64,000 nucleotides of DNA from Candidatus Limnocylindrales bacterium (GTDB taxonomy: Bacteria > Patescibacteriota > Microgenomatia > Levybacterales > UBA12049): positions 125,690 through 189,689 of the forward strand of contig DATLDE010000005.1 in the NCBI GenBank assembly GCA_035526025.1. Reading direction: 5' to 3'. Made by a program: the position numbers and the translations under genes. Positions within the stretch are counted from its first letter, which is position 1. The number at the start of each line of letters is the position of its first letter. Under the pieces are notes generated by a model. It searched no databases. It saw only the letters and a program-made list of their open reading frames with translations, and had not been told where the DNA came from. Positions 6,734 through 58,851 of this stretch are shown piece after piece.

Positions 6734-6762
6734 TTGACTTTGCTTAAATCATTATATGATAA
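6734..6762 (+). promoter_or_regulatory. Sigma70-like promoter of cassette copy A (TTGACT -35, 15-17 nt spacer, TATGAT-like -10)
   Basis: Same -35/-10 arrangement conserved at 9560 and 11105 in the other cassette copies. Confidence 0.45.
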
Positions 6763-6790
6763 TGATATTAACAATGAAATTTATCAGATA

Positions 6791-6802
6791 CTCTCTCTCT
6801 CT
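6791..6802 (+). repeat. (CT)6 dinucleotide tract in 5' leader of cassette copy A
   Basis: ctctctctctct between promoter and RBS; copy B has (CT)4 and copy C has (CT)10. Confidence 0.9.
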
Positions 6803-6851
6803 GAGGAATGCCTCTTCTGTCAATCTCCACTCCGAAAGGAGCACATCCTAA

Positions 6852-9143
6852 ATGCCTAGGCTCCCAATTCCAGGTTCAGATGATGGTACATGGGGTGATA
6901 TCCTCAATGATTTCCTCACTCAGGAACACAATGCAGACGGTACCCAGAAGGCAATTCCACAGTCGAAGGTTACAAATCTTGTTAGTGACCTGGCTGGCAA
7001 GCAGGCGACAATTCCGGCAGGGACATACGTTGACACTACGACGGCGCAGAACGTCGCCGGTAAAAAGACGCTCGCCGACGATTCCATCTTCGCCTCGGGT
7101 CGACCGTGGGTAGACATTGAGGCGAAAGGAGCGGTAGTCGGAGCGGCCGACAATGGTCCAGCAATCAACTCGGCCATCTCTACTATGGCTGCGCTCGGCG
7201 GCGGCGACGTACGAATCTTCAAGTCGTACAACTTCTCAACGCCCATCGTAGGAGCCAGCGGTGTTCGTCTACTGGGCACGACCTTTCCTACCGGTGGAGC
7301 GGGCCTACCTGCCCGGTTGATCTACACGGGCTCCGGGTCAACGACAGCTATCCAGGCCGCAGGCGTCAACGGCTTCCAGTTGGAGAACCTGGCCGTGCTG
7401 TATTCCAGCAACACCTTCACGGGCGTGGTGCTCGACATGAGCCGGGTCGCGGTCGGCTGCGGCGGCAAGAACGTCTACATCGGCGCTGCCGGGCAGGCCA
7501 CGAAAACCGCTTCGGCTTGTCTGCAACTAGACCAGGCAACTACGGCGAAGTTCGAGCGGTGGTCGTTTCAGGATGCCGATCACTGCATTACCGGCAAGGC
7601 GTCCACGACCGTCGCCGCTGGCTCGAACGGGGCTGTCCTCCCGCAGGCGACGATCAATGTCGTGTCTACGGCCCGGTTCTCCTCATCGGGGACGTTTGTC
7701 ATTGGCAACAGCACGATTGCATACACCGGCACAACAGCTACATCGTTTACAGGCTGTACGGGTGGGTCGGGCACCTTGGCGACCGGGAACTTAGTCGTCA
7801 CGTATGCCAACAACATCCAGTTCGATACCTGCCACTTCATCAACGCCAACATCTCCCACGTCCACAACAGCGGCCAGGGCTGGTCCTTCATCAACTCAAC
7901 CGTCGAATACATCGTCGGAGGCGCTGCCGGTTTCTATACACACGACCCAGGCAACCGAGCCCAAGGGTTCTCGGTCCTCGGCGGCTGGTGGGGAGATGTG
8001 ACTAACGGCGGCACCCAAATAGTCTGGTCGGGAGATGGCCTGACAATTGGCGGCGGTCTCTTTCTCGGGATTGGCAACAACGCTACGGCAATACAGATTG
8101 ACGAGAACAGTTGTAACGGCTTCGACGTGTCACCCGGATGCCTAATATACGGTTTGGGCACCTGCAAAGGAATAGATTTCGGGGTCACGTCTGGACATGC
8201 CGATGTCCGCATCGCTCCGGGATGGTTTCAGGTATCAACCAAGATCGCCGGTAATGTCCCGCTCGGAGGAATAGTAGATGTTGGAACGGGACCGCAGCTC
8301 TACGGCGCGAGTTTCCTGATTGGCGGACCGCCGAACCTGATGACGGCGGACCAGGCATCATTCGAAGGCGGCATCGCTGACTGGGTACCGTTTGATGTCA
8401 CCAAGAACACGGTGGCCCGCTCGACTGCGTGGTCCGCCGACGGTGTGGCGTCTCTTTTGAGCACCACTACCGTCGCCGGTCCCCAGGATGTCCGGGTGAA
8501 CACGGCGGTAAAGGGCGTTCCTGTCTTGCCTAACACCACGTACACCGTGGTGGCAACCATGCACTCGGCTAACGCTCGCACCGTAGACCTAATCTTAACG
8601 ACATGTGACGCCTCGGGCAGCCAGGTTGGCAGCGTCCAGGTCGTCGGTAACCCGACGTTCTCAACAACGACGGCGGTTAAGACCGCCACCATCACCACCA
8701 ATGCCATAGCGGCCTATTTGCAGGTACAACCCCGTTGGTACGCTACAACAAGCGCCGATACCGGCAACGCCGTGGACAAGTTAGGTGTGTTCCTGGGGTC
8801 ATCAGTGCCCACATGGGTCCTGCCCGGCTCCAGCACGTCAATCAACGGGGCCGACATTACGACACGCTCCCTCCACGGTCCGGCCACGCTTCCACTGCTG
8901 ATCAACCCGATCGGGTCCGGCACTGGCGGAACGGTGTTTGGGGACGGCGCCGGGAACGTTCAGGCGACCATTCTGAACGGTATCCAGGTGCAGACCGGCT
9001 CTCGTCTCTTTTCCGGTGCGGGAGCGCCGAACGTGCCGGGGTCAGTTGCCGGGGACTTCTACCTGAGAACCGACACGCCGTCGACATCACTCCAACGGAT
9101 CTACGTCGCTACAGCGGCCAACACATGGACTGGCATCCTGTAA
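6852..9143 (+). CDS. Large beta-helix (pectate-lyase/tailspike-like) protein with conserved low-GC N-terminal module and about 65% GC body
   Basis: 763 aa; first 54 aa almost identical to ORF 11229..13307; 'AINSAISTMAALGGGDVRIF...GASGVRLLG' resembles N-terminus of right-handed beta-helix (pectate lyase 3-like) proteins; Gly/Thr/Ala-rich; GC rises sharply after about codon 55 and drops again at the stop codon; numerous antisense ORFs are high-GC artefacts. Confidence 0.7.
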   Translation: MPRLPIPGSDDGTWGDILNDFLTQEHNADGTQKAIPQSKVTNLVSDLAGKQATIPAGTYVDTTTAQNVAGKKTLADDSIFASGRPWVDIEAKGAVVGAADNGPAINSAISTMAALGGGDVRIFKSYNFSTPIVGASGVRLLGTTFPTGGAGLPARLIYTGSGSTTAIQAAGVNGFQLENLAVLYSSNTFTGVVLDMSRVAVGCGGKNVYIGAAGQATKTASACLQLDQATTAKFERWSFQDADHCITGKASTTVAAGSNGAVLPQATINVVSTARFSSSGTFVIGNSTIAYTGTTATSFTGCTGGSGTLATGNLVVTYANNIQFDTCHFINANISHVHNSGQGWSFINSTVEYIVGGAAGFYTHDPGNRAQGFSVLGGWWGDVTNGGTQIVWSGDGLTIGGGLFLGIGNNATAIQIDENSCNGFDVSPGCLIYGLGTCKGIDFGVTSGHADVRIAPGWFQVSTKIAGNVPLGGIVDVGTGPQLYGASFLIGGPPNLMTADQASFEGGIADWVPFDVTKNTVARSTAWSADGVASLLSTTTVAGPQDVRVNTAVKGVPVLPNTTYTVVATMHSANARTVDLILTTCDASGSQVGSVQVVGNPTFSTTTAVKTATITTNAIAAYLQVQPRWYATTSADTGNAVDKLGVFLGSSVPTWVLPGSSTSINGADITTRSLHGPATLPLLINPIGSGTGGTVFGDGAGNVQATILNGIQVQTGSRLFSGAGAPNVPGSVAGDFYLRTDTPSTSLQRIYVATAANTWTGIL

Positions 9144-9559
9144 CTATCGCCCGCCACCTCACCTAGACGGTAAAGTTATTATTTAATAGTAAATTAAACA
9201 AATTTCAGTCTCTAGCTTGACTACCTCATCTAGTTCTGAAAAGGTGATTAAAGTATGAAAGAGCAATATGGTTTCTTGATTGATCTATCTGGTATTCAGT
9301 TTAATGAAGATGCGCCAACGTGGATTCAGGCATTTCCGGTGCATTGCCCGCCACGTTTAGTTCAACGGTTGCAGTTGCCTCCCACGCACATCGTATATTT
9401 ATACGAGCAGCTTGATATATAAATTAAAAGTCTTGCATACAGGCTTTATAGTATGTCTTAATTAACCTATGGCAAAATTACTAGTTTCGGGCTCAGATAA
9501 CTGGACTTTGGGAAAAGTAAATCTTGCTACATCTGTTCGGACGTAAGATGTCTATCCGC

Positions 9560-9723
9560 TTGACTTCCTTTAGATATTTATACAATAATGATATTGACAT
9601 GAATAATTCTCTCTCTTTGAGAATTCCTCTATCTCTACTTCTCATCCCGAAAGGAGCACATCCTAAATGGCAAGACTTCCAGTACTAGGTTCAGACGATG
9701 GCACATGGGGTGATATTTACTAA
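9560..9723 (+). pseudogene. Decayed cassette copy B: promoter, (CT)4, RBS and an 18-codon N-terminal remnant (MARLPVLGSDDGTWGDIY*)
   Basis: Sequence parallels copies A and C through TTGACT, 'caataatgatatt', CT tract, 'gaaaggagcacatcctaaATG' and the PGSDDGTWGD codons, then a stop at 9721..9723; runs directly into tatC. Confidence 0.75.
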
Positions 9724-9777
9724 ATTCTTCACATTGCTTAGTTGCTAATTCGTGGGATATACTTAATAAAGAATACT

Positions 9778-10602
9778 ATGACTGCCCAACACACACCGCT
9801 TGAGGAAAAGACATTTGGTGAACATCTCTCAGAACTCCGGACCCGTTTGATGGTATCAGTTTTTTGTGTTGGGTTAGGGGCCACAGTTGCTTACTTTTTC
9901 AATAAAGAAATTCTCGCGTTTCTCGTGCGTCCTCTTGGCGGACCGCTGTATTACACTACGCCTGCCGGCGGATTTGATCTAGTATTTAAAATATCACTTT
10001 TTTCAGGGATATTTATCGCGTCCCCCATCCTTGTGTATCAATTCCTTGCTTTTCTGGAACCGGTCATTCCGCAAAGAACATCCTCATCCTTACGGCAATT
10101 TCTCCTGGCGTCATGGGCGCTACTTATCGCAGGTGCAGCAGTTGCATACTACCTTAGTCTTCCGGCAGCATTGAAACTGCTTAATGAATTTAGTTCAGAT
10201 CAGGTAAAAGCAATCATCTCAACTAAAGATTATTTCTCGTTTGTGATATCTTACCTTGGTGGATTTGCGTTCGTTTTCCAGCTTCCTGTTGTTATGCTGC
10301 TTCTGAATAAAATCACACCGCTTCACCCCAAGAAACTTTCACATTACATCAGACATGTTGTGTTGTTGAGTTTTATAATCGCAGCAATACTTACCCCAAC
10401 ACCTGATCCTGTCAATCAGGCAATTATGGCAGCACCCCTTATCGTTCTCTATCTTTTATCAATTTTCTTCATATGGCTGGTCAACGTATCTAAAAGGCCA
10501 AAAGTAGTTAAACAAAAATTTCTTTTTGTGGATGCAGATCATCCGGTTATTTACAAAGAGAAAATTAAGAGGCACCAAAGATATCTAAAAAGGGGATACT
10601 GA
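9778..10602 (+). CDS. tatC: Twin-arginine translocase subunit TatC
   Basis: 'MTAQHTPLEEKTFGEHLSELRTRLMVSVF...' matches the TatC N-terminal signature (hLxELRxRL), 6 TM segments; ORF-table start 9742 is TTG, ATG at 9778 is more likely. Confidence 0.85.
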   Translation: MTAQHTPLEEKTFGEHLSELRTRLMVSVFCVGLGATVAYFFNKEILAFLVRPLGGPLYYTTPAGGFDLVFKISLFSGIFIASPILVYQFLAFLEPVIPQRTSSSLRQFLLASWALLIAGAAVAYYLSLPAALKLLNEFSSDQVKAIISTKDYFSFVISYLGGFAFVFQLPVVMLLLNKITPLHPKKLSHYIRHVVLLSFIIAAILTPTPDPVNQAIMAAPLIVLYLLSIFFIWLVNVSKRPKVVKQKFLFVDADHPVIYKEKIKRHQRYLKRGY

Positions 10603-10685
10603 CCAATAGTTGGGAGCTGATTAGGCAATAATATTATGCTATTGACAAGTACAGCAAAAGTAATCTACGATGAGTATATAATCAT

Positions 10686-10865
10686 ATGTTTGGATTAGGA
10701 ATGCAAGAATTAGTCATTATTTTGGTCATCCTGCTTCTTCTTTTTGGAGGAAAGAAGTTGCCTGAATTATCACGAAGCATTGGACAATCTATAAAAGATA
10801 TTCGCAAAGGCTTTTCAGATGAACCACATGAGAGAAAAAAAGATGATAGCGGGAATAATTCTTAG
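10686..10865 (+). CDS. tatA: Twin-arginine translocase subunit TatA/E (59 aa; below ORF-track cutoff)
   Basis: Hand-translated: MFGLGMQELVIILVILLLLFGGKKLPELSRSIGQSIKDIRKGFSDEPHERKKDDSGNNS*; TM helix plus 'FGxKKLPELxRSxGxSIKxxxKGF' amphipathic region is the TatA signature; 80 nt downstream of tatC. Confidence 0.8.
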   Translation: MFGLGMQELVIILVILLLLFGGKKLPELSRSIGQSIKDIRKGFSDEPHERKKDDSGNNS

Positions 10866-10885
10866 AAATTTTATAGAGATACATT

Positions 10886-11077
10886 ATGGTTAAAAAAAAT
10901 CTGCAGCAATTACTAGAAAAAAGAATGACCCGCAAGAAATTTATTGCAACAAGCGGGATGATGGCACTTACAGTACTGGGAGTTACAGGAACCCTTAAGA
11001 AGATCACAGAGCTGCCTCAGGCAGAAAACACCACACCCAAATCAAACGGTTTTGGCTCAAGCCCCTACGGAAAATAG
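10886..11077 (+). CDS. Small protein with Tat-like signal peptide (T-R-K-K-F-I-A ... hydrophobic core)
   Basis: 63 aa; 'MTRKKFIATSGMMALTVLGVTG' resembles S/T-R-R-x-F-L-K Tat motif (RK variant) followed by h-region; immediately after tatA. Confidence 0.35.
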   Translation: MVKKNLQQLLEKRMTRKKFIATSGMMALTVLGVTGTLKKITELPQAENTTPKSNGFGSSPYGK

Positions 11078-11104
11078 TAGTAACATAACCCTATAATTTT
11101 CCAC

Positions 11105-11133
11105 TTGACTTTTTTCTAAATTCTATACAATAA
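11105..11133 (+). promoter_or_regulatory. Sigma70-like promoter of cassette copy C (TTGACT ... TACAAT)
   Basis: Conserved with copies A and B. Confidence 0.45.
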
Positions 11134-11161
11134 TGATATTAACAATGAAATTTATCAATTA

Positions 11162-11181
11162 CTCTCTCTCTCTCTCTCTCT
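11162..11181 (+). repeat. (CT)10 dinucleotide tract in 5' leader of cassette copy C
   Basis: 20-nt perfect CT repeat; length differs from copies A and B. Confidence 0.9.
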
Positions 11182-11228
11182 GAGAAACCCTCTATATTTA
11201 CTTCTCATCCTGAAAGGAGCATCTCCTA

Positions 11229-13307
11229 ATGCCTAGACTGCCAGTACCCGGTTCTGATGACGGCACCTGGGGCGATGTACTTAATGACTTCCTCTCGCAA
11301 GAGCATAATGCAGATGGTACACAAAAGGCACTTGCTCAATCAAAAGTTACCAACCTTGTCAGTGACTTGGCAGGCAAGCAAGCGACTATTGCTCCTGGCA
11401 CTTATGCGGTGGCGGCGTCGGCCCTCGGCGGGGTCAGCGTGGAGGCGCATGGCGTCACAGCAGTTACCTCACCCGCCTTCAACACCACCGCCATCAACGC
11501 CGCCATCACTGCTGCCATCGCCGCCGGCACGAAACTTGTCACGTTCGCCCGCTCCTACCACTTCGACGGCACTCTGCTTATCGGCGCCAGTGGCATCCGG
11601 TTCCTGGGTGCCAGCCCAGACACAGCAGTGGCGCTCGGCTACACGGGCACCGGCGTGGCCATCCAGATCGGCACTGACAACGGCAATGCACACGACGCGA
11701 ATGAGTACAACGGGCCATACGGCTTCACCATGGAGAATCTCACCCTATTCACCGTCAGCCCGGCCACGGCGCTGGACAACGGGATGGGCAACTACAAAGA
11801 CGGGACCTACGGGATCAGAGACTGGCGTGGGGGGCACGTAACGCTCAAGCACGTTCGCATCACCGGATTCGACTTCCCGTTCTGGGGGATCCAGAGCGAT
11901 ATCAACTTTTGGTCGGATGTGACCTTCCAGTTCAACCACTCTGGGGTTTACCTCGGCCCTCGCTCTGACCAGCTCACCGCAGACGCCGTCCTGTTTCTCC
12001 AGAACGACCGGGCGCTGGACATCGATTCGGCTTGGCAGGCCAAACTCAGCGGCTGCGTCTTCGTCGGCAACGGCACGGCGGCGACCAACCCTGTTCGCAT
12101 CCGCTCACAGTTCAGCCGCGGCGCTTCCGATGTCACGTTCAACGACCCTTGGTTCGAGCATATAACAATCGGCCCGACCAACCTGGAGGCGTTCATTGAA
12201 GTAGGAGTCGGGGACAGCACCCGCACCAAGGGTATCTCGGTCAGGAATCCCTTGGTGCTTACCGGCACCACCGCCGAGGCTGTCCACGCCAAGCACCTCA
12301 TCAAGATCGACCAGGCTGATCACATTGAAGTGGACATCGCCACCGGCACCTTCCTGACCAGCCTCGACAACATCGTCAAGGTAGTCACCAACACCGGCAC
12401 CAGCCCGCAGGTGTCCTGCCGAATGCCCCATGACCTCACCCTCGCCGCCCCGGCGAAATACCTCAAGACGGGCAGTGTCACCCCGGCGTTCGTGCTGGTC
12501 GATTGGGGCAGTCAAGGCTGGGGACTGTCGGACGGCACCGGCCGGGAGTCCATGCGGATGAAGCCGGGGACCGCCCCCATCCTTGATATCGTGGACCCAC
12601 TGACCGGCTTCAACACCCACCGGATGACGTGGACGACCCAGGACGCCGGGCAGCTCTTCATCGACCTCAACCAAACGACCTCACAGGTTCACATCCGAGA
12701 CGGCATTGGTAGCGGGAATGACCTCTTTCGTGTCCAGCCCTCGACCGGGGCCTACATCCCGGGCGGCGTGGACCCGAACGCTCTCACGACGGGTGAGTCG
12801 ACAATCCGGCGTCGGGATATCGATACCAACGGCATCTCCCAGGGCAGCACGACCCTCCGTGTTGCCTATTTCACCGCAGGGAAAACCGAGACGATCACTC
12901 AGGTTCGGTTTATTTCGGGCGGCACGGCGGCAGGGGCGACCCCGACCATTTGCCGCATCGGCATCTGGACCGCCGACGCGGCCGGGGCACTCCTGTCCCT
13001 GGTGGCGTCCACGACCAATGACACGACCCTGTGGGCAGCCGCAGCGACCGTCTACACCAAAGCACTCACGGCGTCCTTCACCAAAGTGGTCGGCCAGCGC
13101 TACGCCGTGGGTACTCTCGTCGTCTCCGCAGCCGCCACCCCGACCACCGTGGGGACGAACGGTGTCGGCGGGCTGCCCGCTGCTGAGGCCGGTCTGTCGC
13201 CCCGAATGAGTGGGACGGTTGCAGGGCAATCCAACCTTCCCGCCAGCGTGGTCGCTGGCAGCATCTCCGACAACGCAAGCGCCGTCTACGTCGTGCTCTT
13301 GCCGTGA
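11229..13307 (+). CDS. Second large beta-helix (pectate-lyase/tailspike-like) protein with the same low-GC N-terminal module and a different high-GC body
   Basis: 692 aa; N-term 'MPRLPVPGSDDGTWGDVLNDFLSQEHNADGTQKALAQSKVTNLVSDLAGKQATI' matches copy A; then 'AINAAITAAIAAGTKLVTFARSYHFDGTLLIGASGIRFLG' (pectate-lyase-like beta-helix start); body unrelated in detail to copy A; high GC persists about 40 nt past the stop. Confidence 0.7.
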   Translation: MPRLPVPGSDDGTWGDVLNDFLSQEHNADGTQKALAQSKVTNLVSDLAGKQATIAPGTYAVAASALGGVSVEAHGVTAVTSPAFNTTAINAAITAAIAAGTKLVTFARSYHFDGTLLIGASGIRFLGASPDTAVALGYTGTGVAIQIGTDNGNAHDANEYNGPYGFTMENLTLFTVSPATALDNGMGNYKDGTYGIRDWRGGHVTLKHVRITGFDFPFWGIQSDINFWSDVTFQFNHSGVYLGPRSDQLTADAVLFLQNDRALDIDSAWQAKLSGCVFVGNGTAATNPVRIRSQFSRGASDVTFNDPWFEHITIGPTNLEAFIEVGVGDSTRTKGISVRNPLVLTGTTAEAVHAKHLIKIDQADHIEVDIATGTFLTSLDNIVKVVTNTGTSPQVSCRMPHDLTLAAPAKYLKTGSVTPAFVLVDWGSQGWGLSDGTGRESMRMKPGTAPILDIVDPLTGFNTHRMTWTTQDAGQLFIDLNQTTSQVHIRDGIGSGNDLFRVQPSTGAYIPGGVDPNALTTGESTIRRRDIDTNGISQGSTTLRVAYFTAGKTETITQVRFISGGTAAGATPTICRIGIWTADAAGALLSLVASTTNDTTLWAAAATVYTKALTASFTKVVGQRYAVGTLVVSAAATPTTVGTNGVGGLPAAEAGLSPRMSGTVAGQSNLPASVVAGSISDNASAVYVVLLP

Positions 13308-13381: not shown

Positions 13382-13423
13382 ATGACACAATTACCGGTAC
13401 CCGGTTCAGATAATGGTACATAG
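13382..13423 (+). pseudogene. Cassette remnant D (MTQLPVPGSDNGT*), 13 codons
   Basis: Retains the LPVPGSD(D/N)GT codons of the conserved N-terminal module, then a stop; lies 170 nt upstream of the coupling-protein gene. Confidence 0.6.
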
Positions 13424-13596: not shown

Positions 13597-16320
13597 ATGC
13601 CAACAAAATACATATCATTTCTTGCAGATCTTCCGGTATATTTAATTTTCCTCTCATGCATAACATTTACTTTGCTCATCGCTTATCTTATAACGCGACA
13701 CATATTGCTAAAAAGGAAACTCAATACCCCACATGTTGTTCTTTCAATTAAACCAATCAAGCAAACACTCCAGAGTTCCTATGCTACAGAGCAGTTATTT
13801 ACCCAACTCCATTCACTCATTAAAGGAAAAACATTCTGGCAAAGATTTATGCATGACAAAACATCAATAAGCGTTGAACTAGTTGCAACCAAAGAAGAGG
13901 GAATCCGCTACCTCATTCGCACAAATAAATCTGATGTTTCAGTTATCCGAAAAGCTATCCTGTCATATTTACCAAGTGTTGAGATAGAGGAGGTAGAAGA
14001 TTACCTGCCGCAATCAATCTCAGCTGTGAACAATTTCCTTAAAACAAATAAAGAAATAAGAGTTGTGATTTTTCGCCTATCAAATCACTTCGCAATTCCA
14101 TTAACAGATCAGAAACAACTTGATGAGCATGATCCGATTGCCTATCTCACAGGAAATATGACAAAACTCGCGCGTGAGGAGCTCGTTTCTTTGCAATTAA
14201 TTATTTCTCCGATGGATAAAGCAAGTAACAGAACTAAAACAAATGAAATAAATAGCTTGCTGTCTCATTTATTTCACAGTAAGGATATTTCCAATGTTAT
14301 TAAACATAACAGATTGCTTTCAATCCTTGTTTTCCCAATCAATGCGATTAGTAAATTAATTTACTTAACTCTTGGATTATTGATTGAAATTGTTGGTTAT
14401 ATAGCTGATATTGCAATGAGTAATAGTAACAACCAACAAAGTCCTCGTGACAATTCACAGGCTAAACTTAAAAAAATCTTTACCCCAACAGTCACTCAGC
14501 AAGTGTTATTCGGTCAAGTACATAACAAGCTACAACAGCCAATGTTTGAAACAAGTATGAGGCTTCTTGTAGCTGGCAATAGCTCAGATGCTGTTAGTGA
14601 GCGTATCAGAGGATTTAGAGCAAGTCTCGCAACATTTGATAATACACAATATCAGGCAATTATTCCAAGGCGATCAATCTCAATTCTACCTAAAAAGATC
14701 AAACAATATATTTTGTTTTTCTCACTATACCAAATTGGCAATAGACTGTTGTCTTTCTCTCACAATATTTTCCTCTCAATAAATGAGCTATCAAGTATCT
14801 ATCATTTGCCTTACACCCAAACAACCAAAACTGAGGATATGGTTAAAAGTAAAAGCAAAGAGCTGCCTGCTCCCCATTCATTTAAAAAAGCAGCAACACA
14901 ATTTGATGTTATAGTTGGTACTAATACATATGGTGGTGAACAGACAAAAGTTGGTTTGCCAGTAAGCAACCGCAAAGAGCATACATACATTGTCGGTAAA
15001 ACAGGAACCGGTAAAACAACGATTATTGAGGGAATGGCTCTACAAGACATAACAAATGGCAAAGGAATAGCTGTCATTGATCCCCATGGAGATTTGATTG
15101 AGCATTTACTAACTCTAATTCCTAAAAACAGACTTAAAGATGTGGTACTTGTTAATCCAGCAGATAAAGATTATCCATTGGGACTGAATATCCTCTCCCC
15201 CGGAACGCATTTTTCTGATGTCGATGAGGAAAACGGATTCATAACAAGAAGTCTTATGGCTGTGTTCATGAAAATTACACCTGATAAACATTGGGGGCAG
15301 AGAATGGAGCATATACTCAGAAACGCAACGCTTACTGCCTTAAAGGCACCTACACCAACACCTGAAACACCATATATTTCCTTGCTTTCTATTCAGAAAC
15401 TTCTAACTGACAGTAATTACCGTAGACGAATTACTCAAACCCTAACTGATCCGGTATTAAAACAGTTCTGGGAAAAAGAATATAGCTCATATGGAAAGTT
15501 TCAGCAGGCTGATGCCGCATCTCCTTTGACAAATAAGCTGGGAGGATTTATGACTGATAAGATGTCAAGAAATATCCTGCTTCAGGAAAAAAGTACAATT
15601 AATGTTTCAGAAATAATGGACCAGGAAAAGATTCTTCTTGTGAATCTATCAAAGGGCAAACTGGGAGAGGAGAGAAGTGCATTCTTTGGCACCTTAATGC
15701 TTTCCCTTATCCAACTGGCTGTATATGCAAGGGCTGAAATACCAGAAAAAGAAAGGCGCGATTTCTTTGTTTACATCGATGAATTCCAGAACTTTGCAAG
15801 CACGCACTTTACCGATCTTTTTTCAGAAGCACGAAAGTATCATGTATATTTCATGCCATCTCACCAAAACATTGCCCAAATTGAAGATCCCAAATTATCA
15901 AAAGTTGTATTAAGTAATAGCGGGAATTTAATAGCTCTTAAGAATGGACCGGATGATGAAAGGATTCTTTTACCTTTTCTTGAGCCTGAAGTAGAAAAAG
16001 GATCAATTGTTAATCTTTCCCCTCACCACTTCTACATGAAAGTAACCAATGAATACTCAGAAGATGCATTCTCGGGTGAAACCATACCGATAACAGAGCA
16101 AGGAAGCAGTAAAACAGCAATGGCAATTGTAGAAAATTCAAGAAGTAATTACGCTACTCCAAAAGCCGTAGCTGAGAAACAATTGGAAAAGTTGTTTTTG
16201 GAAATTAAGAAAGAAGTGAAACCCAAAAAAACGGATGGAGATATACAGCAAACGAAACAAAAACCAGCTGCAAAACAAGCAAAAATTACGAAGAAAAAGA
16301 TCAAAAAACAAGAAATATAA
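13597..16320 (+). CDS. Type IV coupling protein (VirD4/TraG/TraD family)
   Basis: 907 aa; N-terminal TM helices; Walker A 'VGKTGTGKTT'; Walker B-like 'FFVYIDEFQNF'; K-rich C-terminal tail. Confidence 0.8.
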   Translation: MPTKYISFLADLPVYLIFLSCITFTLLIAYLITRHILLKRKLNTPHVVLSIKPIKQTLQSSYATEQLFTQLHSLIKGKTFWQRFMHDKTSISVELVATKEEGIRYLIRTNKSDVSVIRKAILSYLPSVEIEEVEDYLPQSISAVNNFLKTNKEIRVVIFRLSNHFAIPLTDQKQLDEHDPIAYLTGNMTKLAREELVSLQLIISPMDKASNRTKTNEINSLLSHLFHSKDISNVIKHNRLLSILVFPINAISKLIYLTLGLLIEIVGYIADIAMSNSNNQQSPRDNSQAKLKKIFTPTVTQQVLFGQVHNKLQQPMFETSMRLLVAGNSSDAVSERIRGFRASLATFDNTQYQAIIPRRSISILPKKIKQYILFFSLYQIGNRLLSFSHNIFLSINELSSIYHLPYTQTTKTEDMVKSKSKELPAPHSFKKAATQFDVIVGTNTYGGEQTKVGLPVSNRKEHTYIVGKTGTGKTTIIEGMALQDITNGKGIAVIDPHGDLIEHLLTLIPKNRLKDVVLVNPADKDYPLGLNILSPGTHFSDVDEENGFITRSLMAVFMKITPDKHWGQRMEHILRNATLTALKAPTPTPETPYISLLSIQKLLTDSNYRRRITQTLTDPVLKQFWEKEYSSYGKFQQADAASPLTNKLGGFMTDKMSRNILLQEKSTINVSEIMDQEKILLVNLSKGKLGEERSAFFGTLMLSLIQLAVYARAEIPEKERRDFFVYIDEFQNFASTHFTDLFSEARKYHVYFMPSHQNIAQIEDPKLSKVVLSNSGNLIALKNGPDDERILLPFLEPEVEKGSIVNLSPHHFYMKVTNEYSEDAFSGETIPITEQGSSKTAMAIVENSRSNYATPKAVAEKQLEKLFLEIKKEVKPKKTDGDIQQTKQKPAAKQAKITKKKIKKQEI

Positions 16321-17310: not shown

Positions 17311-17640
17311 CTAAACCTGTGCTTGATGCTGGCTCTTTATCTCTGAAAGCCTGCAAAGCTTAAAATATAAATCACGTTCTATTGGTAAACTTAAAATTCC
17401 ATTTACACCGCTTTTAGCACTCTTCAACTGGCTAAGGGTAAAGTATCCAAGTTCTGAGTCGTGGCCTACAACATAACCAAAGAAAAGAAAATCATCATCC
17501 GCTTCCTCTCCTTCAGTTGCATACCATGTCCATGATCCTGTTGGGTCAAAAAACTTGATATACACCATTGGATCTCTCTCTTTCTCTTGAGCATAAAGAG
17601 CCGGAAGCTTCTCTTTAAGTTCTACTGTTAATAATTCCAT
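17311..17640 (-). CDS. DUF2958-family protein (conjugative-element associated)
   Basis: 'MELLTVELKEKLPALYAQE...VYIKFFDPTGSWTWYATEGEE...FFGYVVGHDSELGYFTLSQL...IERDLYF' matches the DUF2958 pattern; start at MELL preceded by GGAGGTGA RBS. Confidence 0.7.
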   Translation of the reverse strand: MELLTVELKEKLPALYAQEKERDPMVYIKFFDPTGSWTWYATEGEEADDDFLFFGYVVGHDSELGYFTLSQLKSAKSGVNGILSLPIERDLYFKLCRLSEIKSQHQAQV

Positions 17641-23886: not shown

Positions 23887-24879
23887 ATGATTAAAAATAC
23901 TTATAACAACTCCCGTTGGTTAGAAATTTTAAAGTATGGTAAATATGCTCCAACTCCTCATAACACTCAATGGTATTACCTACATGTAATCAACCAAAAT
24001 AAAGCATTAGTTGGAATAGATAGTTCCATTAGCATACCTTACACTGATCCCGATGATCAGTTTCGATTCACAGGACTTGGTGTTTTTGTAGCTCATCTAG
24101 AATATGCCGCAAAAGCCGCAGGATATTCTGTTCGGTCCACATTTCATGTTAATGATTCCACCTTTCCTGTTGAAGTGCAAATAACTAATACCATAAAACC
24201 TGATCCGTTACTGGCTAAGACTATTTTACAACGACGAACGAGTCGCTTACCCTACCAGAAGAAAAAAATTAGCGACAACGCATTAATAGAGCTCTTAAAG
24301 TTGTCTACAAAGGAGAATTTACTACATATTTCCTCTGACAAATTACTAGTAAGTGCTGTTATCAATCTTAATAACAAAATTCTAATTGATGAATTACGCG
24401 ATAAGGGGCTAGGAGACGAGTTGTCACATTGGATTCGATACACGAACCATGCTCAGGCACAGCATCAAAATGGGTTTACTCCCGACACACTCGCAGTCAG
24501 CGGGTGGAAAATTTGGCTCATCTTGAGATTTAGGTGGGTTGTAAAAATTTCATTTATGCGGCAATGGTTAACAAGACAGTATATTAAACAAAATATCACT
24601 GGCACGGTAGGCTGGATCTACAGTTCTTTCGCTACAAAACAAGATCAATATTACGCAGGCAGATTTATGATGGATCTCTGGATACGTGTGACTGAGTTGG
24701 GATTCTATATGCAGCCTTACGGGTCTATTATTACCAATCTATCCGCTCGAAAACAGTTTTTAAAAGCAGCTGGTCAATCAGAGGCGTATGGTAAAATGGT
24801 TTGGTTAGCTTTTCGTGTTGGAGTTTCTGATGTTCCAGCCGCATCACCACGCAAACCAATTGAGGAGTATTTACGATGA
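23887..24879 (+). CDS. Nitroreductase-family protein (double/extended nitroreductase fold, SagB-like candidate)
   Basis: 330 aa; 'GKYAPTPHNTQWYY' resembles the nitroreductase 'APSxxNxQPW' motif; second 'ILQRRTSRLPY' resembles the nitroreductase 'RRSxRxF' start; stop overlaps the next gene's ATG (ATGA). Confidence 0.45.
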   Translation: MIKNTYNNSRWLEILKYGKYAPTPHNTQWYYLHVINQNKALVGIDSSISIPYTDPDDQFRFTGLGVFVAHLEYAAKAAGYSVRSTFHVNDSTFPVEVQITNTIKPDPLLAKTILQRRTSRLPYQKKKISDNALIELLKLSTKENLLHISSDKLLVSAVINLNNKILIDELRDKGLGDELSHWIRYTNHAQAQHQNGFTPDTLAVSGWKIWLILRFRWVVKISFMRQWLTRQYIKQNITGTVGWIYSSFATKQDQYYAGRFMMDLWIRVTELGFYMQPYGSIITNLSARKQFLKAAGQSEAYGKMVWLAFRVGVSDVPAASPRKPIEEYLR

Positions 24880-29089: not shown

Positions 29090-29219
29090 ATAAATATATA
29101 ATATTTATATATGGGATTAAATGTCAAGAACTAAAACTAGTAACTACATTATCTCAATGCAAATATTAAAATAAACTAAAGGTTTCATCCTTATGTTCTC
29201 AAGTATGTAAGGGTGTTTG

Positions 29220-29522
29220 TTATTCCGATTGGAATGTTTTTATGAAGATTGCGAGTTTTTTACCGTATGGAGAAAGTTTATGTTCCCGAAATTTTCCTCG
29301 ATAATTTTTATCAATTAGTCCTGCGACATGTAGTCTTCGCGTATGTTCACCTATTGTTTTCTCATTGGCTTTAATCTTCTCAACTATACCTTCAAGTGTT
29401 ATTCCTGGTTGGTCATGAATAAGAATAAGTATCTGAATACGATAATGATTGGAGATACCCTTAAAATGCCTTTCCATCTGCTTTGCAGTCTTTACAGAAG
29501 CCATAAAATTATTATTCCACAA
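29220..29522 (-). CDS. ArsR/SmtB-family wHTH transcriptional regulator
   Basis: 100 aa; 'HYRIQILILIHDQPGITLEGIVEKIKANEKTIGEHTRRLHVAGLI' HTH pattern; non-ATG start in ORF table, ATG (MASV) a few codons in. Confidence 0.55.
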   Translation of the reverse strand: MWNNNFMASVKTAKQMERHFKGISNHYRIQILILIHDQPGITLEGIVEKIKANEKTIGEHTRRLHVAGLIDKNYRGKFREHKLSPYGKKLAIFIKTFQSE

Positions 29523-29524
29523 TA

Positions 29525-29870
29525 CCCTTACATTCTCAAGTATTTAAGGGTGATTTAACAGATGAGCTACAACATACACAACATCCTCATATTCTCGGGT
29601 ATTTAAGGGTGTTGAGTGGTGAATAGAGGCATGGTAAATCTAAATAAAATGCTCGCTTGGTTTAAACTAAAATTGAATGATCCGCTGCAACCCCTACCCG
29701 AAGTCTAATTAAAATAATCAAAACATCCTTACATTCTCAAGTATTTAAGGGTATTGTGCGACAATAATTGGAATAATTGGTTTGAAAACAATAAGTATAT
29801 TTTTTACTTAATTTGAACGAAAGTTGAATGACTCGCTGAAAGCCTTTCCAGAAATCTAAAAATGATGTAA
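29525..29870. repeat. Intergenic tandem repeats: three copies of a 27-nt palindromic motif CCTTACATTCTCAAGTATTTAAGGGTG (fourth copy near 29189..29215) plus a duplicated 40-nt motif TTGAATGA.CGCTG.AA.CC....GAA.TCTAA
   Basis: Motif copies at about 29525, 29585, 29727 and 29189; each has CCCTTA...TAAGGG inverted arms; second motif at about 29668..29712 and 29826..29868; coordinates +/-2 nt. Confidence 0.7.
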
Positions 29871-38539: not shown

Positions 38540-39484
38540 CTAAATGGATAGATCATCATACCTTGCACTATTTGACTTAAGAAACGCGTTTACTTCTGAT
38601 GGGTGTTCTTTTTTAAATTGCTCAAGCTGTCCCAATGTGGGAATTGATTCAATGCCCACGCCACTCAGTGCTGCAATTTTCACTGCTGAAAAAAAAGCAG
38701 CATATACTCCGGCTTCTATAGCACTCCCGGATTTTATAAACTTTGCAATAAATGCCGCAGCAAATGAGTCCCCGGCCCCTGTAAAATCCTTAATTTCATC
38801 CTCCTTAAGAAAAAATGCATTAATAGTCGTATCCATACCACCCTGATAAACGATAGCACCCATTCTGCCTCTAGTAAGAACCGTGATTGGAGAAGCGCTT
38901 GTAATTCTATCGAGCAAGCTATCATCGATTATCCCCCCTATCGCGATATCCTCCTCACTCAGTATTGTGATTGCCGCAGCGGATAAATCTTCTTCAAATC
39001 CGCTCCATTCTCTCTGAAATACTGTCCCGTCTTCATTTGTATCCCGGAAATACCCCTGTGGAGTTACAACCACTAATCCGTATTTCGCAAGATATGGAAT
39101 AGAACGGGTATCAACCTCACCCATTACAGATGCTACAAGAAAAACAGTGTTCCTAAAATTATCTGCTGGAATATTTTTCAACTCTGTTGCTGTAATATCT
39201 TCCTGTCTATCAAGAAGCACTTGTTTTCTTTCTCCAAATGGTCCATACCTATTTGTAAACGTGGTAATTCCATCGTATTCTGTGGGAAGTGTGAGAACAC
39301 TGATACCCCGCTTTACAAGTGTGTCTGTGAACCTATGCCCTTCCGGTAGTTTTGTAATCACTTGAACCTCCAGTCCTAGGTTCCGAGCCGCAATTCCAGC
39401 ATATGACACTCCCCCTCCAATAACATTTACAGGCTCTGCCGTATCCTCTACTACATGTCCAACTGCAACCAAACGCTCTATCAT
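38540..39484 (-). CDS. PfkB-family carbohydrate kinase (ribokinase-like)
   Basis: 314 aa; 'DFTGAGDSFAAAFIA' GAGD motif of PfkB kinases. Confidence 0.7.
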   Translation of the reverse strand: MIERLVAVGHVVEDTAEPVNVIGGGVSYAGIAARNLGLEVQVITKLPEGHRFTDTLVKRGISVLTLPTEYDGITTFTNRYGPFGERKQVLLDRQEDITATELKNIPADNFRNTVFLVASVMGEVDTRSIPYLAKYGLVVVTPQGYFRDTNEDGTVFQREWSGFEEDLSAAAITILSEEDIAIGGIIDDSLLDRITSASPITVLTRGRMGAIVYQGGMDTTINAFFLKEDEIKDFTGAGDSFAAAFIAKFIKSGSAIEAGVYAAFFSAVKIAALSGVGIESIPTLGQLEQFKKEHPSEVNAFLKSNSARYDDLSI

Positions 39485-53625: not shown

Positions 53626-54231
53626 CTATTTTGCCATTTTTAAGATTTCTCTCGTAACATCAGGAAGTGAAGTAATACTATCAGCATTATCTACTGGACC
53701 AGAAAAATGGCCCATGCTGTGTTTGATAATAAGTTCAGCGCCCAATTTTTCCTTAAATATATAACCATATTTTAATGAAACATATGGATCATTATCAGAA
53801 TGAATTGCAATATATTTTTTTGCCTTTGTTTTGAGCTTACTCCATAAAATAGGTGATTCAAAGAAATTCTTAAGCTCATCTTCTATTGGATCAACACTTC
53901 GAAGATCATCTGTGAATCCAGCAACAAGTATAACCCCTCCAACTTTTTCGTTTTCATTCAGTTGCTCTAAATACCTTAATATAGCCATGCACCCTATGCT
54001 ATGTCCTACAAGATATAAATTTTCGTTGGGAATTCCTATAGCTTCCTTTAATGTCGGCAGCCAGAGAGATAATTTAGGTAAATTCGTTTCAGGCATTTCG
54101 GGAACAGTTACCTGAAAATTTTGTTGTTCCAATTCTTGTTTTGTTTTAGGATACCAACAATATTCAGGCGTTCCATTCCAGCAGTGAACAATAACAGCAT
54201 GTTTCATTGGACAATTATAACAAAATACCAA
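53626..54231 (-). CDS. Alpha/beta hydrolase, YdeN/RBBP9-like serine hydrolase
   Basis: 201 aa; 'HAVIVHCWNGTPEYCWYP' and 'LYLVGHSIGC' match this family. Confidence 0.55.
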   Translation of the reverse strand: MVFCYNCPMKHAVIVHCWNGTPEYCWYPKTKQELEQQNFQVTVPEMPETNLPKLSLWLPTLKEAIGIPNENLYLVGHSIGCMAILRYLEQLNENEKVGGVILVAGFTDDLRSVDPIEDELKNFFESPILWSKLKTKAKKYIAIHSDNDPYVSLKYGYIFKEKLGAELIIKHSMGHFSGPVDNADSITSLPDVTREILKMAK

Positions 54232-58278: not shown

Positions 58279-58851
58279 TTATGTATTCAGTGATTCCCAT
58301 TCTTCATCTATATTTTCCCATGGAAATATTCTGATTTCATTAGTTATGCCCATTTTCTCTGCTTCAACGTTGGAAATAAATCTTCCTTCATTACTCAATT
58401 CTCCATAAAATATTTGCTCTATGAAGTCCAGTGATTTTATAGACTGATCAATTAAAGCAGAAGCAAAGTAGAGCTTAGCCATTGGATATAAATCATATAC
58501 ATCTGTTATAACTTTAGCTGCAATTTTTTTATGAACTGTATTGGAATCAACAATTAGGATATTGCGATTAGGTGGCAAAGTGAAATTTAACTTGGGAAAA
58601 TCAAATTTTTTTTCAATCTTAATTTCTTGAGAATAGATATATTTATACTGAGCAGGCAATATATTTATAATCTTTAACTTTGATGCTAGATGTAATCCTG
58701 TAAATCCCCCACTTCGCAGGATAGGAACTACCAAATCAATCTTTAAGTTATTCTTAAGTACATACTCTTCAATTTTTTTTGTTAATGTGTTTAGAAGTTC
58801 TCCAAATTCCTGATATGACATCTCTCTTAAATCCTCTCTCTGAATTTTCAT
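58279..58851 (-). CDS. Phosphoribosyltransferase-domain protein (candidate)
   Basis: 190 aa; 'DLVVPILRSGGFTG' and 'ILIVDSNTVHKKIAAKV' resemble the PRTase type I fold. Confidence 0.4.
   Translation of the reverse strand: MKIQREDLREMSYQEFGELLNTLTKKIEEYVLKNNLKIDLVVPILRSGGFTGLHLASKLKIINILPAQYKYIYSQEIKIEKKFDFPKLNFTLPPNRNILIVDSNTVHKKIAAKVITDVYDLYPMAKLYFASALIDQSIKSLDFIEQIFYGELSNEGRFISNVEAEKMGITNEIRIFPWENIDEEWESLNT

Follow-up and report, generated by a model that had tools for sequence, protein, structure and literature searches.

Do perfect CT dinucleotide tracts of unequal length, lying in front of tailspike-like genes, act as repeat switches in an uncultured, ultra-small bacterium of the candidate phyla radiation (CPR) type? 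The question is raised by a 64,000-nucleotide (64-kb) stretch of contig DATLDE010000005.1 (assembly GCA_035526025.1, positions 125,690 to 189,689 of the forward strand), hereafter the window, in which three copies of one module (A, B and C) carry (CT)6 at 6791-6802, (CT)4 at 9609-9616 and (CT)10 at 11162-11181, all on the + strand, as are the promoters, ribosome-binding sites, genes and upstream frames described below. The lengths and positions reported in a preliminary description of this DNA are exact, and all three tracts are perfect. We tentatively propose that the tracts are contingency-locus repeats in the leader of a triplicated module driving tailspike-like genes, an interpretation to which we give somewhat less than an even chance; that they serve as functional simple sequence repeats (SSRs) in some way, whatever the mechanism, comes close to an even proposition.

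Repeats of this kind are rare here, as had been claimed. A microsatellite census of the whole window found dinucleotide repeats of at least 5 units only at tracts A and C; repeats with units of three to six nucleotides were absent altogether. The 12-mer (CT)6 occurs solely in those two tracts, where dinucleotide-preserving shuffles gave an expectation of 0.01 occurrences. For the 8-mer (CT)4 the expectation was 1.67, and 14 overlapping matches were observed in the window. Three unrelated (CT)4/(AG)4 runs in coding DNA (17573, 55029 and 58834) equal tract B in length, and by itself that length is at chance level. Tract B still counts because the homologous alignment columns of the triplicated module hold it; its four units are followed by TT where copies A and C go on with the repeat. 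Set against the length from which slippage is expected, roughly 5 or more dinucleotide units, (CT)6 and (CT)10 are long enough, and copy B with 4 units is borderline.

Alignment shows that the three tracts are positionally equivalent within a ~310-nt module that is present three times and is made up of a TTGACT-18-RATAAT promoter, a pyrimidine-rich leader, an GAAAGGAG ribosome-binding site and the first ~60 codons of a gene. Its 5′ edge lies ~15 nt upstream of the TTGACT -35 box, which is followed by an 18-nt spacer and a (G/A)ATAAT -10. A promoter scan, supported by the aligned columns, which are invariant, located the promoters at 6734-6763 in copy A (-35 TTGACT at 6734-6739, 18-nt spacer, -10 GATAAT at 6758-6763), 9560-9589 in copy B and 11105-11134 in copy C, the latter two with TTGACT, an 18-nt spacer and AATAAT; the -10 hexamers end at 6763, 9589 and 11134. 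Then come, in order, the box ATAATGATATTRACA, the CT tract, a pyrimidine-dominated stretch, the invariant Shine-Dalgarno sequence GAAAGGAG (6834-6841 for gene A, 11212-11219 for gene C) and the start codon. From tract to Shine-Dalgarno the distance is 32-33 nt, and from the end of the tract to the main ATG 47-50 nt. The 3′ edge falls ~180 nt past the start codon: beyond it, copies A and C are 45% identical, down from 75%, and GC content climbs to ~60%.

The tracts thus belong to the leader, as the preliminary description had it, and fall outside the -35/-10 spacer: they begin 20-28 nt past the -10, downstream of the predicted promoter, with tract A at about +21 from the predicted transcription start. 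We treat them as elements of a transcribed leader because the predicted promoter precedes them and the Shine-Dalgarno follows. Neither the promoter scan nor reading of the sequence yielded an alternative promoter that would put a tract in its spacer, and all three tracts precede the main ATG, outside the coding sequence that they might regulate.

Along with the -35, the -10 and the Shine-Dalgarno, the CT core is among only four or five invariant blocks of an alignment whose mean column identity is 76%, and the flanks of the copies are just 68-83% identical to one another. Perfect tracts of unequal length within flanks so diverged indicate that slippage has happened while the CT core was retained. 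Recombination within the tract was considered as well: on its 5′ side copies A and C are closer (83%), on its 3′ side B and C (78%), a contrast too weak to support a breakpoint. Retention of the core could also have a neutral cause. Selection may act on the pyrimidine-rich, unstructured character of the leader, for example as a ribosome standby or S1-type landing site before a strong Shine-Dalgarno, while the length of the microsatellite drifts without effect on expression; we regard this as a real possibility but lean against it. Such a leader fits the stretch between tract and Shine-Dalgarno, which is 74-80% pyrimidine in all three copies despite their sequence differences (window mean, 52%), and the regions upstream of genes A and C, which rank first and fourth for pyrimidine content among 46 genes. 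A perfect 20-nt repeat and a CT core kept in copies that have diverged by 25% nevertheless exceed what pyrimidine bias accounts for.

The genes behind the leaders belong to a class that is usually placed under phase variation. Of the three promoter-bearing copies that had been described, all three indeed have predicted promoters, but full-length genes follow only in A and C, and copy B leads into a relic. Gene A (6852-9143, 763 amino acids) joins the N-terminal module (MPRLPIPGSDDGTWGDILNDFL...) to a ~60% GC tailspike-like body with a β-helix and a domain resembling carbohydrate-binding modules (CBMs); gene C (11229-13307, 692 amino acids) joins the same N-terminal module to a different ~60% GC body with a weak NosD/β-helix signal. 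Both proteins begin MPRLPxPGSDDGTWGD(I/V)LNDFL. Their bodies (7001-9143 and 11400-13307) stand out from a genome of ~35% GC, with the switch ~180 nt into each gene. For the gene A body the best full-length relatives have 31-34% identity over 86-90% of its length and carry PF12708 (pectate-lyase-like β-helix). With no close homologue and a best full-length match of 31-34%, we rejected the idea that the high-GC bodies were recently acquired by horizontal transfer from a donor whose genome has been sequenced.

Weak matches to CBM_4_9 in protein A and to a NosD β-helix in protein C accord with this picture. An AlphaFold model of protein A has low confidence (mean predicted local distance difference test score, 58); its top PDB matches are the phage tailspike depolymerases CBA120 TSP4 and Klebsiella K2 (E ~1e-7, with template modelling (TM) scores of only 0.1-0.2), and model residues ~555-650 match CBM4/CBM16 modules (TM ~0.46-0.5 relative to the target). 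Homology, together with the fold of this low-confidence model, is tailspike/depolymerase-like, and a signal peptide is not evident; the products are probably surface or host-interaction proteins. Relatives of the N-terminal module number at least 541 in GTDB genomes, from Saccharibacteria and other CPR/Patescibacteria. A phage origin was considered and set aside, as just one relative occurs in IMG/VR viral contigs; near absence from viral contigs makes this a cellular, tailspike-like family.

Whether SSRs accompany the family elsewhere was examined in 80 loci from other genomes, which together span 433,681 nt and contain 91 starts of family genes, comparing family with other genes of the same loci over the 120 nt upstream. 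At strict thresholds (G/C of at least 8, A/T of at least 10, dinucleotides of at least 5 units), the survey contained four SSRs, each lying 36-53 nt ahead of the start codon of a family gene (binomial P = 4e-7): 4 of 91 family genes had one upstream, compared with 0 of 265 other genes (Fisher P = 0.004). Looser thresholds gave 9/91 and 4/265, respectively (P = 0.0009). The association of SSRs with the family across genomes is therefore non-random.

Three of the four strict SSRs are poly-G tracts in metagenome-assembled genomes (MAGs) of Saccharibacteria from GTDB: G9 in locus L023 (2932-2961, JACOTW010000008.1), G10 in L063 (2926-2956, CAZGGJ010000017.1) and G13 in L054 (2917-2950, JBBCFY010000008.1). 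Each lies exactly 9 nt past a TTGACx/TTGCCA -35 and adjoins a TAnnnT -10, giving spacers of 18, 19 and 22 nt. In predicted layout these three are textbook promoter-spacer switches, a design that is apparently unreported in Saccharibacteria and by which the family would use classical SSR control elsewhere. The fourth, a (GA)7 tract (L043:61-74, JBAQWG010000052.1), precedes the ATG of a second family gene (MSRLPTPGGDNGNWGTILNDYL) by 36 nt; its purine-pyrimidine duplex matches that of CT but is turned round relative to the direction of transcription. Recurrence of varied regulatory SSRs in one family raises the prior that the CT tracts are functional. It is hard to reconcile with neutral drift, which leaves unexplained three kinds of SSR upstream of the family in unrelated CPR genomes (4/91 versus 0/265). 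Judged from these upstream sequences, repeat slippage probably acts on the expression of this family, as a switch or as a tuning device, and the window locus is a plausible new candidate for the class of SSR contingency loci.

Upstream of family genes in many Saccharibacteria we also observed the motif GCTTATGCTAAAAT, which resembles a TGn-extended -10, or the complement-like ATAAGCA, 30-60 nt before the ATG (L010, L013, L016, L021, L033, L047, L048, L050, L053, L055, L058, L098 and others). It may be a shared promoter or operator.

Tract-length variation itself was seen only from paralogue to paralogue (4, 6 and 10 units). No close relative of the lineage was present in the databases searched: the nearest other TatC is 65% identical, and the relatives are CPR MAGs whose loci are without the module. 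Exact TatA look-ups for contigs of the same species returned no match, and exact TatC and gene C matches led to one Logan contig (run SRR8554898), seen as gene coordinates without DNA. Five consecutive gene starts on that contig are offset from the window by exactly 4078 nt, unbroken across all tracts; the constant offset implies identical tract lengths in the Logan assembly. This result all but removes the concern that the tract lengths are artefacts of assembly or sequencing. Assembly from short reads can give repeats the wrong length, and the MAG used here was assembled by a third party, yet tracts of 8-20 nt are far below read length, flanks of 68-83% identity are distinct enough for unambiguous placement, and an independent pipeline (Logan) gave gene coordinates at one exact offset across all three tracts; we consider an artefact highly improbable.

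The same observation cuts the other way for phase variation. The suggestion that the tracts vary in this manner draws strength from perfect homologous tracts of unequal length, from the gene class and from the recurrence of SSRs in the family; against it, the sole other assembly, probably built from the same reads, has the tract lengths of the window, an agreement equally in keeping with a repeat of no consequence. Nor did the CT tract or the leader occur in any of the 80 best GTDB family loci (of at least 541), and metagenomes scanned for the combination of promoter box and Shine-Dalgarno gave no match. Since the 80 GTDB loci, two metagenome scans and one viral-contig scan showed the leader nowhere else, its conservation rests on three paralogous copies, which further weakens the case.

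A search for CT runs of four or more units placed 30-60 nt ahead of the start codon of a family gene gave none in viral contigs and, in the metagenome scan, only one unrelated organism in two samples. In that organism (L095:2688-2725 and L096, from two JGI samples), the -35 box of a family gene runs into (CT)4 (TTGACTCTCTCTAG...), so that the repeat overlaps the -35 box and the promoter spacer, with the same length in both samples.

How might a leader repeat of this kind be read? Leader RNA structure had been put forward as one route, and folding does not bear it out. When the tract was varied in silico from n = 0 to 16 units and Shine-Dalgarno pairing was computed, the mean unpaired probability of the Shine-Dalgarno for n = 2-16 stayed at 0.21-0.22 in copy A, 0.18-0.21 in C and 0.36-0.39 in B. 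Leaders fold more weakly than their shuffles (z = +0.63 to +1.03), and the summed pairing probability between tract and Shine-Dalgarno is at most 0.32. The Shine-Dalgarno is predicted to be ~80% paired, within a local CUCC/GGAG mini-hairpin, and the repeats are not predicted to pair with a purine-rich partner in a long, stable hairpin of the hmw1A type. On the strength of the z-scores and the n = 0-16 series we rejected an RNA-structure switch. Weak folding and an accessibility independent of n are also what a leader selected simply to be pyrimidine-rich and unstructured would display.

Our candidate readout for a contingency repeat at this position starts from the translation style of the genome, which appears largely leaderless from its upstream sequences. 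With -10 hexamers, TGn-extended or plain, counted at 5/6 or more consensus matches, 17 of the 46 window genes have a hexamer ending 3-9 nt (mode, 6-8) before the ATG, compared with 9.4% of all ATG trinucleotides (P = 4e-7). A Shine-Dalgarno is present in only 4-6 of the 46 genes and absent from 40-42. Examples of the apparently leaderless pattern include those at 23887, 38540-39484, 53626-54207 and 58279-58851. Genes A and C are exceptions, having leaders of 82-88 nt and a strong Shine-Dalgarno. In all three module copies, however, an ATG lies 9-10 nt past the -10 hexamer (6774, 9599 and 11145), which puts it on the predicted 5′ end or no more than a few nucleotides away.

Frame analysis showed that each of these ATGs opens a candidate upstream open reading frame (ORF), whose translation we infer, that enters the CT tract. 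In copy A it covers 6774-6851 (25 codons), running through the tract to a TAA at 6849-6851 that abuts the main ATG; in copy B it spans 9599-9688 (29 codons), crossing the ATG of the relic out of frame and ending at a TAG (9686-9688); in copy C it occupies 11145-11183 (12 codons), the TGA at 11181-11183 overlapping the last T of the tract. Because the upstream ORF spans the tract, each unit of 2 nt moves its termination site. Every copy offers the three frames the same kinds of end: a TGA that overlaps the final T of the repeat, a TAA that abuts or overlaps the start codon of the main gene, and a TAG that lies inside the main ORF, 5 nt in for copies A and C and 19 nt in for copy B. The copies thereby occupy three different states, with TAA at n = 6 in A, TGA at n = 10 in C and read-through to TAG at n = 4 in B.

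A mechanism along these lines would begin with replication slippage adding or removing CT units, so that the protein output of each gene would change and the population would become mixed. The transcript would start 0-4 nt before the ATG (6774, 9599 or 11145), leaderless initiation would open the short upstream ORF, and each CT unit would rotate that ORF among the three fixed termination sites. Early termination at the TGA, as in copy C, would leave a bare leader and make the main gene rely on its own partly hairpin-masked Shine-Dalgarno. Termination at the TAA by the main ATG, as in copy A, could couple termination to reinitiation, with ribosomes melting the Shine-Dalgarno hairpin, and would probably give the highest output. 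Translation as far as the TAG inside the main ORF, as in copy B, would occlude the start site. The net effect would be a three-state translational switch or volume control and not a promoter-spacer on/off switch. Although it is the readout we favour, we consider it on its own rather unlikely that CT length is read through termination of the upstream ORF.

Several observations temper this proposal and, with it, the contingency interpretation. Stop codons are not significantly depleted in the leaders relative to composition-matched shuffles (P = 0.26-0.64), so the open frames could be a by-product of pyrimidine richness, as they would be around a neutral microsatellite; on that result we rejected selection for an open upstream ORF. 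At 9-10 nt past the -10, the upstream ATGs are at or just beyond the 3-9 nt range of the leaderless genes here, and three copies in three different states have a chance probability of 0.22. The (GA)7 leader of L043 lacks an upstream ATG, so an upstream-ORF readout would not be general to the family. With accessibility flat across n, RNA folding predicts no length dependence, and with the tracts outside both the spacer and the main ORF no classical mechanism applies directly.

Another way for tract length to grade expression would be as a length-dependent target of a trans-acting factor or as a DNA structure, the candidates being a purine-rich small RNA (sRNA), an RNA-binding protein, Rho acting at a YC-rich rut site, a (CT)n.(GA)n triplex (H-DNA) or a regulator. 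Rho prefers C-rich, G-poor, unstructured RNA, which counts towards this route. Between the -10 and the tract, copies A and C are identical at 30 of 32 positions, far above the 75% of the coding part, and the segment includes TGATA...TATCA, which could be an operator. The (GA)7 in a family leader (L043) hints at a DNA- or duplex-level property, and a variable leader repeat read by an sRNA has a precedent in tlpB (PMC8295292). Outside the tracts, however, the 64 kb held no convincing purine-rich partner, apart from one coding stretch (17572-17587); the leaders matched no Rfam family, and no regulator or rho gene was identified in the window. The whole route is inferential, and we rate it as improbable.

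Contingency repeats at this position would have relatives among known systems. In Moraxella catarrhalis, repeat number of the uspA1 poly-G and uspA2 (AGAT)n tracts, both in the 5′ untranslated region (5′ UTR), alters mRNA and protein levels. There, as here by prediction, the SSR lies between the transcription start and the ATG, of a surface adhesin gene there and of a probable surface gene here; the repeat units are other ones, the effect is attributed to transcript level, and upstream ORFs play no part. In Helicobacter pylori, outer-membrane protein genes such as oipA, hopZ and sabA/B contain CT repeats near the 5′ end of their coding sequence, where they cause on/off frameshifts. The CT unit is common to both, as would be the 2-nt frame shift and the three-state cycle, but the H. 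pylori tract is inside the main ORF, in the signal-peptide region, whereas the window tract is outside it and could shift only a short upstream ORF. Homopolymer switches in promoter spacers (Neisseria porA/opc, Bordetella fim, Treponema tpr) match the layout of L023, L054 and L063 (-35, 9 nt, G9-13, -10) and not the window tracts.

Closest in the way they operate are repeats transcribed within 5′ UTRs, uspA1/uspA2 among them. That such SSRs can tune the expression of adhesins or receptors is established for other bacteria (PMC12721329; PMC8295292). For Haemophilus influenzae hmw1A/hmw2A, an (ATCTTTC)n repeat is transcribed in the 5′ UTR and its number grades expression (PMC12721329). The likeness to the window lies in a pyrimidine-rich SSR, transcribed (in the window by prediction), between promoter and start codon of a large gene of surface/adhesion type (in the window a probable one) whose main frame is left unshifted. 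The hmw repeats differ in that they pair with a G-rich arm into a long hairpin, which is cut by RNase III; in the window no such hairpin is predicted, and predicted folding is insensitive to n. A window unit has 2 nt where an hmw unit has 7 nt, and the window tracts are far shorter. The leader of H. pylori tlpB contains a variable G-repeat targeted by the sRNA RepG, with translation graded by length (PMC8295292). Both loci have an SSR of varying length in an mRNA leader, a predicted one in the window; the tlpB repeat is homopolymeric G and its C/U-rich sRNA has been identified.

The surroundings of the module supply further observations. In copy B the relic N-terminus (9667-9723; 18 codons, MARLPVLGSDDGTWGDIY and then a stop), recognized by tblastn and in the sequence, lies 55 nt upstream of tatC (9778-10602, with a TatC Pfam match), and promoter B may now serve the tat operon. 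Synteny is kept in relatives, with tatC, in some loci tatA, a small membrane protein and the family gene in series (window 9778-11077; L093:8001-8900; L082:447-3264); a small gene also precedes the family gene in L001, L002/L020, L030, L034, L042, L045, L051 and L095. The small membrane protein has a Tat-like TRKKF(I/L) motif, with KK for RR, and a C-terminal G(F/Y)GSxxYG(G/K). In relatives the family gene directly follows the small gene, whereas in the window the promoter/CT module lies between them.

Degenerate N-terminal relics stand directly downstream of genes A and C, at 9469-9546 (MAKLLVSGSDNWTLGKV...) and 13382-13423 (MTQLPVPGSDNGT*). They have a different, short 'TTAATTA' leader, like that of the closest metagenomic N-terminus (L081:1003-1017), which suggests repeated replacement of the cassette by recombination in the N-terminal module. 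Within protein A, residues ~262-315 (window ~7635-7796) form a ~55-amino-acid motif, LPQATINVxST..F..SGT..V....G.QTV.YTG.TATSFTGCTGG.GT..TGN.V, which repeats, at times in tandem, in many otherwise unrelated large proteins. Matches to it have 44-70% identity over 5-15% of the query, and many carriers have precomputed PF16190.

Farther along the window, four copies of a ~47-nt repeat (…CATCCTTA(C/T)(A/G)TTCTCAAGTAT(G/T)TAAGGGTG…) occur within 600 nt at 29172-29756. The MAG is labelled 'Candidatus Limnocylindrales bacterium' (Chloroflexota), whereas its GC content, its TatC relatives and the tailspike-like family point to CPR/Patescibacteria, as does a VirD4/TrwB-like coupling protein (13597-16320). 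These sequence features make it likely that the label is wrong or the contig mis-binned.

In its widest form, the interpretation would be that CPR/Patescibacteria, including Saccharibacteria, maintain contingency loci on this tailspike-like family, whose proteins probably attach to hosts or degrade polysaccharides, in at least three SSR designs, namely promoter spacers built on poly-G, leaders with (GA)n and leaders with (CT)n, the last read through a leaderless upstream ORF. Taken whole, this remains doubtful in our judgement; the upstream-ORF repeat mechanism within it would be one not described before, and in the literature searched we found no paper on SSR phase variation in CPR/Patescibacteria. 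The main interest lies in the family-wide association of SSRs with CPR tailspike-like genes and in the possible upstream-ORF frame switch. If correct, the latter would be a new way of reading a repeat, suited to organisms that normally translate leaderless mRNAs. How CPR bacteria, for the most part episymbionts that have not been cultured, recognize their hosts is poorly understood. Should their tailspike-like genes be under microsatellite control, these bacteria would spread the risk involved in recognizing hosts or surfaces, much like pathogens, and such host-recognition genes could then be found from sequence alone.

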